The notes below the pieces were generated by a model, which did no database searches, was not told the origin of the DNA, and saw nothing but the letters and a program-made list of their open reading frames with translations. Positions 2,376 to 8,952 of a stretch of DNA of 11,761 nt are shown here, piece after piece; position 1 is the stretch's first letter; each line of letters starts with the position of its first letter. This stretch comes from a virus (taxonomy: Duplodnaviria; Heunggongvirae; Uroviricota; Caudoviricetes): positions 1 to 11,761 of IMG/VR virus record IMGVR_UViG_2585427768_000001; one strand, 5' to 3'. A program made the translations under genes and the position numbers.

Positions 2376-2567
2376 TTAAAGACCTGCCGGGATTTCGTTA
2401 TTATCCTGGTGAATAACTTTATCGACCGGGTAACAGTTACCGGGAATTTTCTGTTCGGTTGCTGCAGTCACACACTCCTGCATTGTCCTGTGAACACTGA
2501 CTGCAATATCAACTGGCTCTCCGGAAACAAGAAAAACTGTCAGAACAAGTGCAAATGCTGTATTCAT
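2376..2567 (-). CDS. Hypothetical small protein (63 aa) with hydrophobic N-terminal segment; racC/ydaE-position gene
   Basis: ATG at 2567..2565 overlaps the TGA of the upstream gene (ATGA coupling), with AGGA 8 nt upstream. Product MNTAFALVLTVFLVSGEPVDIAVSVHRTMQECVTAATEQKIPGNCYPVDKVIHQDNNEIPAGL. The track's longer 2376..2621 ORF has a poorly spaced SD. Confidence 0.5.
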   Translation of the reverse strand: MNTAFALVLTVFLVSGEPVDIAVSVHRTMQECVTAATEQKIPGNCYPVDKVIHQDNNEIPAGL

Positions 2568-2752
2568 TGCCAGCATCCTTTTTGTATCGGACGTAAACGG
2601 GCCAGCATTGAAAGAATGCATATTTTATTTAATAGCTCCCGTTCGTGTTTTCTCTTGTTAATGGCATCTTCAGTAAATACAGGGTTACTGATATTGACAC
2701 CAATTTCAAAACAACCTTCAGACGTATTAACGTTTGGTAATAACGTTTCCAT
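2564..2752 (-). CDS. Hypothetical small protein (62 aa); kilR-position gene of the leftward early operon
   Basis: ATG at 2752..2750 preceded by GAGGA with 7-8 nt spacing on the minus strand; product METLLPNVNTSEGCFEIGVNISNPVFTEDAINKRKHERELLNKICILSMLARLRPIQKGCWQ; stop overlaps the start of the next gene. Confidence 0.5.
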   Translation of the reverse strand: METLLPNVNTSEGCFEIGVNISNPVFTEDAINKRKHERELLNKICILSMLARLRPIQKGCWQ

Positions 2753-3004
2753 TATCGCGTCCTCAACAATGAATTTTGTGATGCGGTGCCTGGTGCCTCC
2801 AGGTGACGTTAACCAGTTAACAATTAACGCCGGATACAGAGAATCCACCCATAACACTGTTTTTGGTTTTAACTGTTCCGCGTGCGCTCAGCCGCATTCA
2901 CCACATCACAAAATTCACTTTAAAAAGGGCGGCAGAGCAGTCACGGAGTAAAACTGATACCGCCAAACGTCACCAGAAAATTGATAACAGAGGGCGTTGC
3001 AGCG

Positions 3005-3041: not shown

Positions 3042-3314
3042 GGTGTCCTCAACGGGGGAAGAAATACCCCCGCCATACTTACCGCCGCGCCATTTCGCGG
3101 ATTGCCACAACCGGAAGCGCACGGTCGACGAAAATTTAACGACAGGCTATCTATGAACCAGCTACCTCGCCGTGCGCTTTCGCGTTATGGTCTGACTTTT
3201 CAGGGAAATATCCTTTCAGTAAACTGTCAGTGCCGGATGCTCACCCGTGTCCGGCGCACGCACTCCACCTCACCCGTGGAGAACTCCTTAATCACCAACC
3301 CTCAGGAGGGTGAA

Positions 3315-3590
3315 ATGTCGACTGAAAATGATGAAATCATTAACTCCCTGATACGCCAGATTAATAATTTTGATAAAGCATTGCAACATGCTGCGGCGCG
3401 TAGTGATATAACTCTTTTAGCAATTTCATTTCTTGCATCTGTTATGGATAAAAATGAAGTCGTACGACAGAGTCTTGTTGATTATATCGACTCGCTTCAA
3501 CCCGGCACTTTCAATCATGAGAGCTTCAATCATGAGAAAGAGCATGTTAAGTCTGTAATTAATTCTCTTATTTTGAATCAAAAGAATTAA
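3315..3590 (+). CDS. Hypothetical protein (91 aa), AT-rich gene in sieB position
   Basis: ATG 3315 preceded by AGGAGG 5 nt upstream; in frame with track ORF 3102..3590, whose upstream extension is GC-rich, Arg-rich and has no SD. Product MSTENDEIINSLIRQINNFDKALQHAAARSDITLLAISFLASVMDKNEVVRQSLVDYIDSLQPGTFNHESFNHEKEHVKSVINSLILNQKN. Contains a 15-bp in-frame tandem duplication (3510..3539). Confidence 0.6.
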   Translation: MSTENDEIINSLIRQINNFDKALQHAAARSDITLLAISFLASVMDKNEVVRQSLVDYIDSLQPGTFNHESFNHEKEHVKSVINSLILNQKN

Positions 3591-3900
3591 TGCTTTTTGT
3601 TGCAAAGTAATTTTCAAGGGGTTCTATTCGAATCCCTTTCTTTTTCATTAACAAGCCAAACCCCTTATCAATGATGTCCATTAGATCCAGGAAGTATTTT
3701 TCATGTAAATCCTGGTTATAAGAGAGCTGCTTCTCTTCGTACAGCCCGATAAAGGCTCGGCGTACGTTACCGGATATATTGTCGATGGTTTCTTTTTCTA
3801 CGGTACTCAGGTCAAGAGTCGCCAGTTGAGAGCGAACCACATTCGATGCCATTTCCTGGAATGGGACTGGTAAATCTTTAAATTCCATCGTCAACCTCAT
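3568..3900 (-). CDS. Hypothetical protein (110 aa); second gene of the leftward pL-like early operon
   Basis: Track ORF; ATG 3900..3898 overlaps the TGA of the upstream 77-aa gene (ATGA coupling); alternative start MEFKDLP 12 nt downstream. The 3' end overlaps the convergent 91-aa gene by 23 bp. Confidence 0.55.
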   Translation of the reverse strand: MRLTMEFKDLPVPFQEMASNVVRSQLATLDLSTVEKETIDNISGNVRRAFIGLYEEKQLSYNQDLHEKYFLDLMDIIDKGFGLLMKKKGIRIEPLENYFATKSINSFDSK

Positions 3901-4133
3901 CAGTCAGTGTTTCTGGTTAACCAGCGACGTGCGCCAGCTTCAGTTTTAAACGTTTTGCTTCTGGTATATGTCATCGCGGTAAACGTGCCGTCCTGGTTGG
4001 GAAACACGCCGCATACCAGAGATTCGTTGTTGCCAAGCTCGATAGTATCCATGCTGACCTCATTTCCCCTTAACGCCGGGGTAGCGGAACAAAAACCTGC
4101 TGCATAGTTATTAAAGTTGAACCCTGCCGTCAT
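3900..4133 (-). CDS. Hypothetical protein (77 aa); first gene downstream of the leftward pL-like promoter (ydaG/ydaF position)
   Basis: Track ORF; ATG 4133..4131 with GAGG 9 nt upstream on the minus strand; product MTAGFNFNNYAAGFCSATPALRGNEVSMDTIELGNNESLVCGVFPNQDGTFTAMTYTRSKTFKTEAGARRWLTRNTD. Confidence 0.5.
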   Translation of the reverse strand: MTAGFNFNNYAAGFCSATPALRGNEVSMDTIELGNNESLVCGVFPNQDGTFTAMTYTRSKTFKTEAGARRWLTRNTD

Positions 4134-4232
4134 GTTCTTACGCCTCGGGCTGGCTACTTAACCCCTGACCACTGCCTGGTAACTCGAGGTATTGCCCTGT
4201 ATTGTGTGGGACGGGATGGGTTGGTATGGGAA

Positions 4233-4276
4233 AACTATAGGAAATGCCTAATTACTTGTCAATAGGCTATGCCTAA
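4233..4276 (-). promoter_or_regulatory. Leftward pL-like sigma70 promoter with operator palindrome (OL-like)
   Basis: On the minus strand: -35 TTGACA (4262..4257), 17-nt spacer, -10 TATAGT (4239..4234). Palindrome TAGGCTATGCCTA at 4263..4275 and GCCTA half-site at 4246..4250. Segment 4255..4276 is the exact reverse complement of 4899..4920 on the other side of racR. Confidence 0.6.
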
Positions 4277-4370
4277 TAATTTGGGCGCAACCTAATAGGT
4301 GATGGTTTGTGGGAGAGGTAGTAGGAGTTAACTAACGGGAACTAGGAATTTCCCGTCGGACCATATAAGT

Positions 4371-4847
4371 TTAAGTTCCTGTCTTGGTGATGTTCTGGCT
4401 TTTCCGTTTTGATTCTTGATTTTTCAGATAGTTAGCTACCTTCATTTCCATTGCGGCAATGTAGGCGCGAACGTCATGATCAACCCAACTAGGCTCCGTA
4501 GCATTTCCAGATAAGATGAAAGCCACAATTGCTCTTTTTTCATCAGAGGCGGCTTGATAAAGGCTGTTTATGTCTAAAAGTTCACTTTTTGTATCTGAAG
4601 TGGATGGGGTTGGTATGGGGTATTCGTTAAGCCCCCAATGCTCTGGACCAACCACATCAGAAAAGAAACGCCATAGTTCTGGAAGTTTGTCTTTACTTAT
4701 CGAACCTTTCTTAATCCAGTCATGGATTGATGGTGGTTGGACTTTGAAATGACGTGCGATTTCCGCCTTTGATTTGACGGCTCCTGATGCAATTTTTTTG
4801 TTAATGGCCTGCTCTATCGCTCGGCCTAAGTCTTTACCACTAAGCAT
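4371..4847 (-). CDS. racR: Prophage repressor, RacR-like (158 aa, HTH)
   Basis: Track ORF MLSGKDLGRAIEQAINKK...; HTH-like segment KSKAEIARHFKVQPPSIHDWIKKG; divergent from the ydaS/ydaT-like genes, flanked by operator repeats. Size and organisation match Rac racR from memory, not verified by search. Confidence 0.7.
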   Translation of the reverse strand: MLSGKDLGRAIEQAINKKIASGAVKSKAEIARHFKVQPPSIHDWIKKGSISKDKLPELWRFFSDVVGPEHWGLNEYPIPTPSTSDTKSELLDINSLYQAASDEKRAIVAFILSGNATEPSWVDHDVRAYIAAMEMKVANYLKNQESKRKSQNITKTGT

Positions 4848-4898
4848 TGCTTAATAGTCTCCTATGCGCATCGCGTTAGGCAATCCCTACTCTCGATG

Positions 4899-4944
4899 TA
4901 TTAGGCATAGCCTATTGACAATTTCATTAGGCTAAGCCTAATAT
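4899..4944 (+). promoter_or_regulatory. Rightward pR-like sigma70 promoter with two operator palindromes (OR-like)
   Basis: -35 TTGACA 4915..4920, 18-nt spacer, -10 TAATAT 4939..4944. Palindromes TAGGCATAGCCTA (4902..4914) and TAGGCTAAGCCTA (4928..4940), centres 26 bp apart, overlapping the -35 and spacer. Confidence 0.6.
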
Positions 4945-4971
4945 TGTTGCGTGTTTTTTGGAGTTCATTCG

Positions 4972-5295
4972 ATGAAAAAAGATAACTATTCATTCAAACG
5001 AGCTTGTGCTGTTGTCGGTGGGCAATCAGCAATGGCTAGGCTTTTAGGTGTATCTCCTCCAAGCGTAAATCAATGGATCAAAGGTGTACGTCAGTTACCT
5101 GCTGAGAGATGTCCTGCGATTGAACGAGCAACAAAAGGTGGTGTCCTGTGTGAAGAACTTCGTCCTGATGTTGATTGGACATACTTACGACGCTCGTCAT
5201 GTTATTCGCAGAATATGTCGATGAAGCAACCAAATGACGAAAACGATCATACCCGAAGCATCAAGAGGCAAATGATTCATGAAAATCAAACATGA
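4972..5295 (+). CDS. ydaS: Cro/YdaS-like HTH protein (107 aa)
   Basis: ATG 4972 with GGAG 8 nt upstream; in frame with track ORF 4951..5295. Product MKKDNYSFKRACAVVGGQSAMARLLGVSPPSVNQWIKGVRQLPAERCPAIERATKGG... has the YdaS/Cro-like HTH pattern; first gene from the pR-like promoter. Confidence 0.7.
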   Translation: MKKDNYSFKRACAVVGGQSAMARLLGVSPPSVNQWIKGVRQLPAERCPAIERATKGGVLCEELRPDVDWTYLRRSSCYSQNMSMKQPNDENDHTRSIKRQMIHENQT

Positions 5296-5704
5296 GCACA
5301 TCCGCATGGCGATGAATGCCTGGGCATACCCTGATGGTGAGAAAGTTCCTGCAGCTGAAATAGCCCGGACTTATTTCGAACTGGGGATGACGTTCCCTGA
5401 ACTGTACGACGACAGCCATCCGGAAGCCCTGGCCCGTAATACCCAGAAAATTTTCCGTTGGCTGGATAAAGACACCCCTGATGCTGTTGAAAAAATGCAG
5501 GCTCTGTTACCGGCGATCGAAAAGGCGATGCCGCCTTTGCTGGTGGCCCGTATGCGCAGCCACAGTTCTGAATATTACCGTGAGATCGTCGAACGGAGGG
5601 ATCGGCTGGGGAAGGATGTCGATGATTTTGTTGCGTCAGCGGTTGTTTTGTATGACCAGATGAATCGCGGCGGCCCGGCAGGGAATGCTGTGGTGATGCA
5701 CTAA
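5279..5704 (+). CDS. ydaT: YdaT-like protein (141 aa)
   Basis: Track ORF MKIKHEHIRMAMNAWAYPDGEKVPAAEIARTYFELGMTFPELYDD...; overlaps the 3' end of the ydaS-like gene by 17 nt; position and size match Rac ydaT. Confidence 0.65.
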   Translation: MKIKHEHIRMAMNAWAYPDGEKVPAAEIARTYFELGMTFPELYDDSHPEALARNTQKIFRWLDKDTPDAVEKMQALLPAIEKAMPPLLVARMRSHSSEYYREIVERRDRLGKDVDDFVASAVVLYDQMNRGGPAGNAVVMH

Positions 5705-5726
5705 AAGCACGGTGTTCGGGGGTTTT

Positions 5727-6689
5727 ATGAGCAGCAAGCTTCATGGTCTTGTCTGGGAAGGGTGCGCCTTCACCGGCATGATCTTATCCAGGGTGGCGGT
5801 TATGGCCCGTCTTGCAGACTACAGCAATGACGAGGGCGTGTCATGGCCTGCCATTGAAACTATCCGGCGTCAGATCGGTGCAAGAAGTGAATCCACAGTG
5901 AAATCGGCTATTGCAGAACTGGCGAAAGAGGGCTGGCTGACGAAGGAAGAGCGTAAGGTCGGTGGGCGTAATGTAAGCAATATCTATCGGCTTAATGTGG
6001 AAAAACTCGAAGCAGCTGCGGCGGCGGCGCGTGAGTCATATAAACCGAAAAGAAAAATTAGCCCGGCAAAAAATGACCCGTTAACAGTTGACCCGTCAAA
6101 TATTGACCCCTCAACGGTTGACCCGTCAAATTTTGATGGATCAACTGTTGATAAAAAACTGCCGATTAGGGGGGCGATGATTAACCCCGATCCGTCAGTA
6201 TTAAAACCTGATCCGTCAGATAAAAGATCTTCTTGTCCGGACGCTTCGCAACCGGACCCGCAGACGGCTGAACAGGATTTTTTAACCCGACACCCTGACG
6301 CGGTTGTGTTCAGTGCGAAAAAACGCCAGTGGGGAAGTCAGGAAGATTTGGTGTGCGCACAGTGGATCTGGGGACGAATCGTGAGTCTTTACGAGCAGGC
6401 GGCCAGCGATGATGGCGAGATCACTAGACCGAAAGAACCCAACTGGACAGCATGGGCCAATGACGTTCGCACAATGCGGATGCTGGATGGCAGAACTCAC
6501 AGACAAATTTGTGAAATGTTTGGGCGTCTCCAGCGGGATTCGTTCTGGGTAAAAAACATCATGAGTCCGGCAAAACTCCGGGAAAAATGGGATGAACTGG
6601 TTATCCGCCTGGGGCGTTCGCCTGCGCAGCGTTGCGTGAATCACATTTCTGAACCGGACACTGAAATTCCGCCGGGCTTCAGGGGGTAA
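5727..6689 (+). CDS. Phage replication initiator, O-like (N-terminal winged-helix DNA-binding domain), about 320 aa
   Basis: ATG 5727 with GGGGG 4 nt upstream (track uses GTG 5712). N-terminus MSSKLHGLVWEGCAFTGMILSRVAVMARLADYSNDEGVSWPAIETIRRQIGARSESTVKSAIAELAKEGWL resembles phage replication-initiator HTH domains. A DPS-repeat linker coincides with DNA-level iterons, as in lambda O. Confidence 0.65.
   Translation: MSSKLHGLVWEGCAFTGMILSRVAVMARLADYSNDEGVSWPAIETIRRQIGARSESTVKSAIAELAKEGWLTKEERKVGGRNVSNIYRLNVEKLEAAAAAARESYKPKRKISPAKNDPLTVDPSNIDPSTVDPSNFDGSTVDKKLPIRGAMINPDPSVLKPDPSDKRSSCPDASQPDPQTAEQDFLTRHPDAVVFSAKKRQWGSQEDLVCAQWIWGRIVSLYEQAASDDGEITRPKEPNWTAWANDVRTMRMLDGRTHRQICEMFGRLQRDSFWVKNIMSPAKLREKWDELVIRLGRSPAQRCVNHISEPDTEIPPGFRG
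6073..6148. repeat. Five tandem 15-bp-spaced iterons (core TTGAC-N2-GTCAA), putative prophage ori
   Basis: ATGACCCGTTAA (6073), TTGACCCGTCAA (6088), TTGACCCCTCAA (6103), TTGACCCGTCAA (6118), TTGATGGATCAA (6133), then an A-rich tract ATAAAAAA (6149..6158) and two more GATCCGTCAG copies (6189, 6211). Confidence 0.6.
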
Positions 6690-8585: not shown

Positions 8586-8796
8586 AAACGGTTTGCGGGA
8601 AAAGGAGAGTTAAGTAGAATTGCAGCGGGTGCTTGAGGCTATCTGTCTCAGGCATGAACACCAAAAGGCAGATAGAGAAAAGCCCCAGTTAACATTACGC
8701 GTCCGGCAAGACGCTTAACATTAATCTGAGGCCATATCTATGCTCTACACACGTAGGTTAGCCTCTTACGTGCCGAAAGGCAAGGAGAAGCAGGCT

Positions 8797-8952
8797 ATGA
8801 AGCAGCAAAAGGCGATGCTAATCGCCCTGATCGTCATCTGTTTAACCGTCATTGTGACGGCACTGGTAACGAGGAAAGACCTCTGCGAGGTACGAATCCG
8901 AACCGGCCAGACGGAGGTCGCTGTCTTCACAGCTTACGAACCTGAGGAGTAA
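8797..8952 (+). CDS. hok: Hok/Gef-family type I toxin (51 aa), HokD/RelF-like
   Basis: Product MKQQKAMLIALIVICLTVIVTALVTRKDLCEVRIRTGQTEVAVFTAYEPEE matches the Hok family signature; AAGGAG 9 nt upstream of ATG 8797. An in-frame upstream ATG at 8740 with its own GAGG SD gives the track's 70-aa form. Confidence 0.85.
   Translation: MKQQKAMLIALIVICLTVIVTALVTRKDLCEVRIRTGQTEVAVFTAYEPEE

Follow-up and report, generated by a model that had tools for sequence, protein, structure and literature searches.

Genes, operators and promoters around racR

The window (the whole stretch analysed, 11,761 nucleotides of the virus record IMGVR_UViG_2585427768_000001) holds a racR repressor gene. Its product matches the NCBIfam equivalog NF049929 at 246 bits (cut-off 200) and is 91% identical to RacR of E. 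coli K-12 over 158 aa; searches of Pfam, PHROG and PDB returned no match for it. In published models, the N-terminal domain of RacR is a helix-turn-helix (HTH). Divergent from racR lie ydaS and then ydaT, the arrangement of a RacR-type immunity module, and on its other side follows a leftward operon. The genes concerned are the following:

4371..4847, minus strand: racR, repressor gene, 158 aa
4972..5295, plus strand: ydaS-like Cro analogue (PF15943, 4e-30; P22_Cro, 1e-8; phrog_35)
5279..5704, plus strand: ydaT-like CII analogue (PF06254, 3e-10; phrog_163, CII-like)
3900..4052, minus strand: first leftward gene, 50-aa YdfA/YdaF-family DUF1391 protein (PGAP CDS in locus L002; phrog_751)
3568..3900, minus strand: second leftward gene, 106-110-aa phage protein of unknown function (phrog_6937, 1e-65)
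2927..2978, minus strand: DicF, a small RNA of the leftward operon (RF00039; 76.7 bits against a gathering score of 48)
2564..2752, minus strand: dicB of the leftward operon, encoding a cell-division inhibitor (annotated in strain E7476, 99.9% identical)

An earlier note on this DNA had called the leftward genes unknown. Domain, annotation, Rfam and PHROG matches identify them instead as an early operon of the dicBF type, composed of the YdfA-family DUF1391 protein, the 106-110-aa phage protein, DicF RNA, dicB and a DUF1482 gene. The 77-aa gene which the same note placed first does exist as an open reading frame, mechanically extended to 4133, but the PF07151 match covers its aa 29-75 and the protein probably has 50 aa, starting at 4052.

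racR is the only gene between the arms of a 23-nt, 100% complementary inverted repeat, identified by a repeat search at 4256-4278 (TTGTCAATAGGCTATGCCTAATA) and 4899-4921. It exceeds every other exact inverted repeat of the window (11.7 kb); the longest ones in 100 first-order Markov surrogates measured 13 nt on average and 18 at most. The TAGGC-N3-GCCTA motif, with at most one mismatch, has five matches in the window (starts 4238, 4263, 4877, 4902 and 4928), all in two clusters, one on either side of racR. Shuffled sequences give an expectation of 0.18 at this threshold, and five matches were reached in 0 of 200 shuffles. Two mismatches admit two further sites: 4282-4294, left of racR, and 4841-4853, which covers the racR start codon. 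The sites and the promoters next to them are:

4256..4278: left arm of the 23-nt repeat; pL -35, OL2 and 3 flanking nt
4899..4921: right arm of the 23-nt repeat; OR2 and pR -35
4238..4250: OL1, TAGGAAATGCCTA, 1 mismatch; 2 nt in common with the pL -10; position conserved in relatives
4263..4275: OL2, TAGGCTATGCCTA, perfect half-sites; abuts the pL -35
4282..4294: possible OL3, uncertain, TGGGCGCAACCTA, 2 mismatches; weak site or half-site
4841..4853: weak site covering the start codon of racR, TAAGCATTGCTTA; counterpart of the published K-12 operator 3 (PMC9638921)
4877..4889: OR3, TAGGCAATCCCTA, 1 mismatch
4902..4914: OR2, TAGGCATAGCCTA; abuts the pR -35
4928..4940: OR1, TAGGCTAAGCCTA; overlaps the pR -10 by 2 nt
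4234..4262, minus strand: predicted pL, TTGACA 4262..4257, 17-nt spacer, TATAGT 4239..4234; 11/12 consensus positions
4915..4944, plus strand: pR (PydaS), TTGACA 4915-4920, 18-nt spacer, TAATAT 4939-4944; 10/12
4053..4228, minus strand: predicted 175-nt leader of the leftward transcript

The earlier description of the repeat needs some correction. A perfect inverted repeat is indeed present, but the arms given for it (22 bp, 4255..4276 and 4899..4920) are not exact reverse complements: the pairing is offset by 1-2 nt and the repeat is one base longer. The "13-bp palindrome" of each arm is symmetric in its 5+5 half-sites and not in its N3 centre. Finally, both sides do share one operator type, present not once on each but at least twice on the left (perhaps three times) and three times on the right plus one weak site.

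Each arm combines one operator that abuts an outward TTGACA with a second site 25-26 bp further out, over the -10. OL2 and OR2 are identical in the window, including their N3 spacer. The half-site mismatch of OL1 (TAGGA in the window, ACCTA in K-12) counts against the proposed left unit, and the ATTAGGT half of the possible OL3 (cctattaggtt) is conserved in E. coli-type loci only. The anticipated outward, near-consensus promoters are borne out: they are the two best sigma-70 matches in a scan of 3500-5400, flanking racR in mirror-image geometry. The -10 and -35 of pL stand in the same register to the operators as those of the proven PydaS, and the predicted start falls at about 4227; converted to K-12, this is about position 2655 of locus L001, or roughly 1,419,619 in U00096.

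The 5′ end of the leader is C-rich and G-poor. We rejected a structured RNA element or a nut site there: the leader folds no better than its shuffles (z +1.29), no Rfam family matches between 2978 and 8627, and inspection of the leader found no boxA-like CGCTCTT(T)A.

Conservation of the left unit and limits of the immunity cassette

Fourteen loci of RacR homologues, 5-6.5 kb each, were gathered via the protein, and the set is therefore unbiased for the operator motif. Ten of them carry a pair of sites spaced by 25 nt downstream of the racR homologue; the pair is absent within 2.5 kb in Klebsiella sp. R390, a Nitrosomonas MAG and an Aeromonas MAG. Apart from one isolated downstream match in Proteus, matches with at most one mismatch are confined in these loci to clusters up- and downstream of racR. 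The left unit as a whole, in the order site, TTGAC, site and -10, recurs downstream of RacR homologues of 57-64% identity (Mixta, Proteus, a Klebsiella phage) and also beside Achromobacter homologues that match only the N-terminal half of RacR. It reads TAGGCnnnGCCTA-TTGAC(A/T)-N6-7-TAGGCnnnnCCTA-(a/t)a/t.t in Mixta, Proteus, a Pseudomonadota MAG, two Achromobacter and Klebsiella phage KpF5, at a distance of 90-2300 nt from the racR homologue and with unrelated flanks. Twenty-two non-redundant segments yield about 2 bits per column in the half-sites and the -35, against 0.2-0.4 bits in the flanks: TTGAC and a TA...T -10 persist from genus to genus, unlike the spacer and flanks. In Mixta and Proteus the unit is followed by long genes of the same orientation (DUF2303), as it is in KpF5 (rdgC), where an HSDR_N gene separates the repressor from OL. 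A further 80 viral loci were retrieved with the operator/-35 pattern, which leaves their second cluster and geometry as the only independent evidence they give. The alignment of Rac-like loci that the earlier note had proposed thus finds the left unit kept, in diverged relatives too.

The repeat itself is less constant. Among 49 E. coli-type relatives the longest exact repeat between OL and OR measures 12 to 23 nt and is anchored on TTGTCAATAGGC throughout; the perfect 23-nt length is therefore one allele state, and we rejected it as a functional requirement.

The leader 4053..4228 is 92-95% shared with heteroimmune E. coli prophages, and over 4065-4228 it is shared with K-12 Rac. In four heteroimmune E. 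coli prophages, homology to the window breaks at 4221-4228 and resumes at 5271-5273, which delimits an exchanged block:

4229..5272: immunity-specific cassette with OL/pL, racR, OR/pR and ydaS; block-replaced in heteroimmune prophages

ydaT lies outside the cassette. Past the leader, the heteroimmune prophages carry operators of their own, and in three of the four a motif of the prophage's own can be seen by eye on either side of its repressor. As homology breaks at the predicted +1 of pL, the left operators and promoter belong to the immunity cassette. By these alignments, operators and repressor are exchanged together as a single immunity cassette, and its limits of about 4229-5272 may aid in typing heteroimmune Rac/Qin-like prophages.

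Control of the leftward genes

RacR counts among the few transcription factors that are essential to E. coli K-12; present models of its action take in only the racR-ydaS sites. On that side the expected binding of RacR to the racR-ydaS region and repression of ydaS are published for K-12 (PMC5700373, PMC9638921): EMSA detected RacR binding (PMC5700373); the start of PydaS (TTGACA / TAATAT) was mapped by primer extension and its -10 mutagenized; and DNase I footprinting yielded the consensus T/A-TAGGC-n3-GCCTA-T/A, with the PydaS region protected at the lowest RacR concentration (PMC9638921). The published module contains RacR operators O1-O3, also described as four inverted repeats, PydaS and PracR1-3. 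The right unit is already known, in other words, and the left operator of RacR seems unreported: the literature searched has no RacR site pair downstream of racR, and older literature or curated databases may hold one.

Published K-12 RNA-seq data also bear on the left side. Lowering RacR through the C protein induces leftward Rac genes (PMC6765115), and RacR depletion raises ydaG, ydaF, ydaE, kilR, racC and recE 40-70-fold or more (PMC6765115; preprint 10.64898/2026.09.06.749655). Cascade bound at +3/+58 of racR increases the leftward genes while racR mRNA drops 11-20-fold (preprint 10.64898/2026.09.06.749655), which argues for an independent promoter downstream of racR. The Rac recombination genes are moreover known for zygotic induction (PMC5917428). 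Part of the leftward induction could be secondary to the action of YdaS/YdaT or to excision. The identification of a dicBF-type early operon and the induction in K-12 both support the earlier suggestion that the leftward genes are co-regulated early genes.

It is possible to regard the left sites as auxiliary operators only, which would aid repression at OR or autoregulation by looping, with no working leftward promoter and the leftward genes transcribed by read-through from the racR promoters. racR is co-oriented with these genes and no intrinsic terminator was detected between them; RacR has been reported as an octamer (PMC11014345); and trac, a Rho-dependent terminator within racR, is needed to keep K-12 kil silent, implying such read-through (PMC4150792). 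What makes this account improbable is the 11/12 promoter match in the register of PydaS, with its -35 and -10 kept across genera, together with the rise of leftward transcripts under falling racR mRNA and a heteroimmune mosaic joint placed at the predicted +1.

We consider it very improbable that the left unit, taken as a real promoter, answers mainly to YdaS, the Cro analogue, or to another factor rather than to RacR. YdaS and RacR reportedly compete for the intergenic operators (PMC11014345), and in CP-933P the left promoter PL933P is regulated by both PaaR2 and YdaS (PMC8630535). The left sites, however, are no worse a fit than the right ones to the RacR consensus derived from footprints, and they follow RacR homologues across genera. 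Regulation by YdaS is thus more a complement of RacR control than a rival to it.

A repeat with no regulatory role, left behind by duplication or gene conversion or forming the terminal inverted repeats of a small racR mobile cassette, is largely refuted and retains next to no probability. A perfect 23-nt repeat does bracket a single gene, and the right operators of E. coli type have one extra 25-26-bp operator/-35 unit compared with other genera; this unit is the right arm, so duplication or conversion probably contributed to the exact identity of the arms. Against terminal repeats of a mobile element, which we rejected, no transposase is encoded between the arms, RacR matches a DNA-binding repressor equivalog, the cassette boundaries with heteroimmune prophages (4228 and 5272) lie away from the arms, and the bases just outside these differ by eye (aattac / tttcat), indicating no target duplication. 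Against a mere by-product, the half-sites and -35 stay fixed among alleles of varying repeat length, and the left unit is found at such different distances from racR in relatives.

Altogether, we read the window as a RacR-specific lambdoid prophage immunity region, built like lambda OL/pL - cI - OR/pR, with a probability of roughly 0.87. It combines a RacR orthologue, divergent ydaS and ydaT and the right operators and promoter of a RacR-type module with the dual-operator layout of lambdoid phages, namely motif clusters on the two sides only and, by sequence, outward promoters with co-oriented early operons. For the left unit, OL/pL of this region is the best reading on account of four independent lines: its conservation by diverged homologues, the homology break at +1, the induction in K-12 and the design of CP-933P and Qin. 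With the right half established in K-12, the mirror-image plan first proposed from the letters is supported. We infer from it RacR binding at OL, the activity and start of pL and any binding of YdaS at OL.

In the proposed mechanism, RacR dimers would recognise operators of about 17 bp, (A/T)TTAGGC-N3-GCCTAA(T/A), and on each side of racR an outward sigma-70 promoter would be sandwiched between two of them. As the operators sit on the -35 edge and over the -10, bound RacR would exclude RNA polymerase. The right unit (OR1-OR3 and the weak site at the racR ATG) would silence pR and with it ydaS/cro, ydaT/cII and the replication genes, and would also autoregulate racR. The left unit (OL1, OL2 and perhaps a weak OL3) would silence pL, whose transcript would start near 4227 and pass through the 175-nt leader into the early-left operon, ordered as a ydfA-like gene, the 110-aa gene, DicF, dicB and the DUF1482 gene, then exonuclease, xis and int.

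If correct, RacR control of pL would provide a direct mechanism for the 40-70-fold induction of kilR, recET, ralR and the xis/int-side genes upon RacR failure, and a conserved left operator and promoter would explain the classical zygotic induction of recE. More tentatively, and with the odds somewhat against it, a RacR octamer may bridge an OL1-OL2 tetramer and an OR1-OR2 tetramer, as lambda CI does, enclosing racR in a very short loop of about 640 bp. Both toxic arms, ydaS/T to the right and kilR or dicB/DicF to the left, would then be repressed more tightly, and the autoregulation of racR would be tuned. On this reading, RacR bound at OL would also block transcripts that read through from the racR promoters, in addition to trac. 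Looping would give the RacR octamer a different reading, and a compact 640-bp natural system for its study.

Comparison with K-12 Rac, Qin, CP-933P and lambda

K-12 Rac is one of the closest known systems: in addition to its closely similar RacR and divergent ydaS/ydaT, it has the same right operators and TTGACA/TAATAT promoter, and a left unit too, TTGACA-17-TATAGT with the sites TAGGCTATGCCTA and TAGGTAATGCCTA. In K-12, in contrast to the window, OL2 and OR2 differ by one base, and the left operon is ydaG-ydaF-kilR-racC-recE instead of the dicBF type.

The left operon of the window is homologous to that of Qin (ydfA, DicF, dicB, ydfD), and dicBp is the analogue of pL. This promoter is repressed by DicA, and operators have been described on both sides of dicA (PMC10448788). 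DicA and its operators are different, however, and the window has neither the promoter and operators nor most of the leader in common with Qin. Only 3921-4090 is shared, homology ending at 4090; the Qin promoter cannot be aligned for this reason, and we dropped dicBp as an anchor for the pL start.

CP-933P of E. coli O157:H7 offers the same gene frame of repressor, ydaS and ydaT with matching left and right promoters. There, PL933P lies downstream of the repressor operon, has the -35 and -10 of the right promoter and carries OL1-3; its repression has been shown, and the repressor is an octamer (PMC8630535). It differs in the repressor and the operator (GTTTAGTAA-type repeats), and a toxin-antitoxin pair, paaA2-parE2, stands between repressor and OL. 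A PaaR2-type locus (L018) shares the leader of the window up to 4223 and ydaT from 5273.

The distance between OL and OR is 2.3-2.4 kb in lambda and 639 bp in the window, which has two strong left sites where lambda has three. Inspection of the leader showed no boxA-like nut site, and no N gene was identified; N/nut antitermination is a defining feature of lambda, and lambdoid prophages need not all have it. No sequence relation between RacR and CI could be detected, nor does RacR have an S24 autocleavage domain; with no Peptidase_S24 match, we rejected its membership in the LexA/CI S24-peptidase family, and it would work like CI from outside that family. The likeness to lambda lies in the plan: one repressor gene between two operator clusters of the same motif, which overlap outward early promoters; analogues of cro and cII in the right arm, with recombination, kil-like and int genes in the left; an octameric repressor (PMC11014345); and a slot between repressor and OL that holds cargo in relatives, the HSDR_N gene of KpF5 recalling rexAB. 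Conceptually, no new principle is involved: another repressor has taken the place of CI in the lambda design, and the modest news is the seemingly unreported left operator.

Mirror-image units around racR

The prophage repressor gene racR lies between the arms of an exact inverted repeat, longer than any other in the window. Direct reading and a repeat scan place its 23-nt arms at 4256-4278 (TTGTCAATAGGCTATGCCTAATA) and 4899-4921; 100 first-order Markov surrogates gave longest inverted repeats of 13 nt on average and at most 18. The repeat described in the earlier note (22 nt, 4255..4276 and 4899..4920) is real, though its coordinates are shifted by 1-2 nt. Five matches to TAGGC-N3-GCCTA, one mismatch allowed, stand in 11.7 kb, where 0.18 would be expected; none of 200 shuffles has as many as five. 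The five matches form two clusters, left (4238, 4263) and right (4877, 4902, 4928); with two mismatches allowed, 4282-4294 joins the left one and 4841-4853 appears across the start codon of racR. A consensus promoter scan of 3500-5400 returned three sites, a number not above shuffles; the two best are the outward-facing TTGACA promoters already noticed on both sides of the gene.

4371-4847, minus: racR, 91% identical to K-12 RacR, passing the NCBIfam RacR equivalog model
4262..4257 and 4239..4234, minus: predicted leftward promoter pL, TTGACA, 17-nt spacer, TATAGT, 11 of 12 in the consensus scan
4238-4250: predicted left operator OL1, overlapping the first two -10 bases of pL
4263-4275: predicted left operator OL2, abutting the pL -35
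4902-4914: right operator OR2, abutting the pR -35
4928-4940: right operator OR1, overlapping the first two -10 bases of pR
4915-4920 and 4939-4944, plus: pR (PydaS), TTGACA, 18-nt spacer, TAATAT, 10 of 12

The left and right units, with racR between them, are mirror images, and in each the outer operator lies 25-26 bp from the one abutting the -35. With its conserved AT flanks the operator measures ~17 bp; its half-site centres stand one helical turn apart, which would fit a helix-turn-helix dimer. RacR found no match in Pfam, PHROG or PDB, and its membership of the CI/LexA S24 family was ruled out on that ground.

Among 49 E. coli-type loci, the longest exact OL/OR repeat takes lengths of 12, 14, 15, 21, 22 or 23 nt and is in every case anchored on TTGTCAATAGGC, and the N3 spacer differs between the K-12 arms. 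Since arm length varies among alleles and the K-12 spacer differs, selection acts on the half-sites and the -35, and the window's perfect 23 nt are one allele state.

A known right half and a conserved left half

The right-hand layout is the same in K-12 Rac, where published shifts and footprints bear out the binding of RacR between racR and ydaS stated in the earlier note. A 123-bp intergenic fragment is shifted in three steps by RacR (PMC5700373). DNase I footprinting defined operators of the form T/A-TAGGC-n3-GCCTA-T/A, the ydaS promoter region being protected first, and primer extension located PydaS (TTGACA / TAATAT), whose activity is lost on mutation of the -10 (PMC9638921). The octamer as which RacR runs is tied by its authors to the four intergenic inverted repeats (PMC11014345). 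We found no mention of sites downstream of racR in the accessible literature, whose coverage stops short of some older work.

The left unit, with TTGACA-17-TATAGT, TAGGCTATGCCTA and TAGGTAATGCCTA, is present in K-12 Rac. RacR homologues gathered by protein search, blind to the motif, gave 14 loci of 5-6.5 kb; full-length ones (Mixta, Proteus mirabilis, a Pseudomonadota MAG, Klebsiella phage KpF5) share 57-64% identity with RacR, while two from Achromobacter match only its N-terminal half, at 77-78%. Ten of these 14 loci carry, downstream of the gene, two sites with a 25-nt spacing. Matches with at most one mismatch are restricted there to clusters upstream and downstream of racR, except for one isolated downstream in Proteus. 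All six loci named keep the unit TAGGCnnnGCCTA-TTGAC(A/T)-N6-7-TAGGCnnnnCCTA, then a TA..T hexamer, in otherwise unrelated sequence, and in relatives it lies anywhere between ~90 nt and 2.3 kb from the repressor gene. Scanning viral contigs with the pattern added 80 loci, in which the first unit is present by construction; all 69 that have a RacR homologue and both flanks hold a second cluster across the gene from the first, in opposite orientation, with none inside the gene. A profile of 22 non-redundant left segments gives ~2 bits per column in TTGAC and the half-sites, and 0.2-0.4 bits in the flanks. In Mixta and Proteus (DUF2303) and in KpF5 (rdgC), the unit is followed by long genes of its own orientation; in the MAG a host-like antiporter gene comes next, suggesting that the locus is a truncated relic.

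The window shares 92-95% identity, up to 4221-4228, with four heteroimmune E. coli prophages (one of a LexA-family CI type, one of a PaaR2-toxin-antitoxin type, two of other types), so that the left joint coincides with the predicted +1 (~4227); the match resumes at 5271-5273, the ydaT start. By our own reading, three of the four repeat their own motif on either side of the repressor gene. These prophages and the window appear, from the alignments, to make one leader from immunity-specific promoters.

Expression in K-12 points the same way. When C protein lowers RacR, ydaF, ydaG, ydaE, racC, kilR, ralA and ydaC rise 40-70-fold and racR falls (PMC6765115). Cascade placed at +3 or +58 of racR lowers its mRNA 11-20-fold and derepresses ydaG, ydaE, kilR, racC, recE, recT, ralR, xisR and intR (preprint 10.64898/2026.09.06.749655). 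Because a block inside racR should stop read-through, a separate RacR-sensitive promoter downstream of racR would be the simplest explanation. That the Rac recombination genes undergo zygotic induction has been known since 1973 (PMC5917428). Altogether, we give the reading of the left unit as the OL/pL of the RacR-type immunity region a probability of a little under nine in ten.

A dicBF-type operon to the left

4053-4228, minus: predicted leader of the leftward transcript, 175 nt
3900-4133, minus: 77-aa ORF containing the YdfA/YdaF-family DUF1391 gene (ATG 4052; 50 aa by PGAP)
Left arm, co-oriented with pL: phage gene of 106-110 aa
3102-3590, plus: opposite-strand ORF inside the operon, at the position of sieB in K-12 Rac
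2927-2978, minus: DicF RNA (Rfam, 76.7 bits)
2564-2752, minus: dicB, with a DUF1482 gene alongside

The leftward genes, formerly taken as unknown, are on these matches a dicBF-type early-left operon. The annotation of strain E7476, 99.9% identical to the window over 3500-5750, continues beyond DUF1482 with exonuclease, excisionase and integrase genes. The 77-aa ORF is probably an over-extension of a 50-aa protein: PGAP annotates the short form in that strain, Pfam DUF1391 spans only aa 29-75, and in K-12 the upstream ATG opens, as we read it, a short ORF in another frame. The prophage thus joins a Qin-like dicBF left arm to Rac-type immunity, which presumably places two cell-division inhibitors under RacR. 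The opposite-strand ORF (145 aa per PGAP, 3153-3590, or 162 aa from an upstream TTG) has no Pfam match in its 162-aa form and no PHROG match in its 145-aa form. The ORF finishes at the hairpin 3616-3638, the sole terminator-like one detected in the region.

The leader is 92-95% conserved in prophages of at least four other immunity types; K-12 Rac keeps the part 4065-4228, after which the first gene differs (ydaG). It is unstructured (z +1.29) with no nut-like element visible, and Rho-dependent attenuation would be a guess at its role. A 13-nt sequence, GGGTTGGTATGGG, is directly repeated without mismatch, with one copy at the leader's 5' end, on the heteroimmune breakpoint (4218-4230), and one in racR, in the linker-coding YPIPTP stretch (4607-4619). 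Both read CCCATACCAACCC(C)CATCC on the transcript strand, C-rich and G-poor; they may be chance (~0.02 expected in 1.6 kb by our estimate) or Rho-loading-type tracts.

To the right of the units lie YdaS/Cro-like, YdaT/CII-like, replication-initiator-like and DUF977 genes. Further along the right arm, a sok antitoxin RNA (8627-8802, plus; Rfam, 117 bits) overlaps a hokD-type toxin ORF, a type I toxin-antitoxin locus.

Proposed control and the lambdoid design

RacR dimers on O1 and O2 would bracket each outward promoter and occlude it. For the right side, published work in K-12 has RacR silencing the replication genes along with ydaS and ydaT, and autoregulating racR with the help of OR3 and the ATG site; on the left it would silence the dicBF-type operon, then the exo, xis and int genes. 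YdaS competes with RacR for the right-side sites (PMC11014345) and probably uses the same sites as RacR, on the left by extension. A RacR octamer may bridge OL and OR across only 639 bp.

As racR points towards pL, transcription from its promoters must be kept from reading through. In non-E. coli relatives, OL2 is immediately preceded by a hairpin and T-run (KpF5 locus L016, 4835-4873; L011, 4997-5036; several viral loci), to all appearance the repressor-operon terminator. The E. coli type has no such terminator, only a 7-bp hairpin without T-run at ~4330-4352, and K-12 relies on the Rho-dependent terminator trac (PMC4150792). Speculatively, OL-bound RacR could add a roadblock.

E. coli-type loci have four right operators (-93, -67, -42 and a weak fourth at the ATG; window 4841-4940), against three (-66, -41, -6) in the Mixta, Proteus, Klebsiella and Achromobacter types (loci L007-L013, L016). 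The extra 25-26-bp operator/-35 unit is the right arm, identical to OL2 and its -35; it plausibly arose by past duplication or conversion from OL.

The original observation is thus confirmed and its interpretation supported: the right half was already known, and the left half appears newly described, predictable from the lambdoid design. The proposed likeness to lambda holds well, its OL/pL-cI-OR/pR design being that of the units around racR. In KpF5, a 384-aa HSDR_N-domain (restriction-enzyme N-terminal-like) gene (L016, 3649-4803), possibly defence cargo expressed from the lysogen, lies between the RacR homologue and OL, the slot of rexAB in lambda. The design has been demonstrated in the same gene frame in CP-933P, where PL933P has OL1-3 (PMC8630535), and in Qin, at dicBp (PMC10448788).
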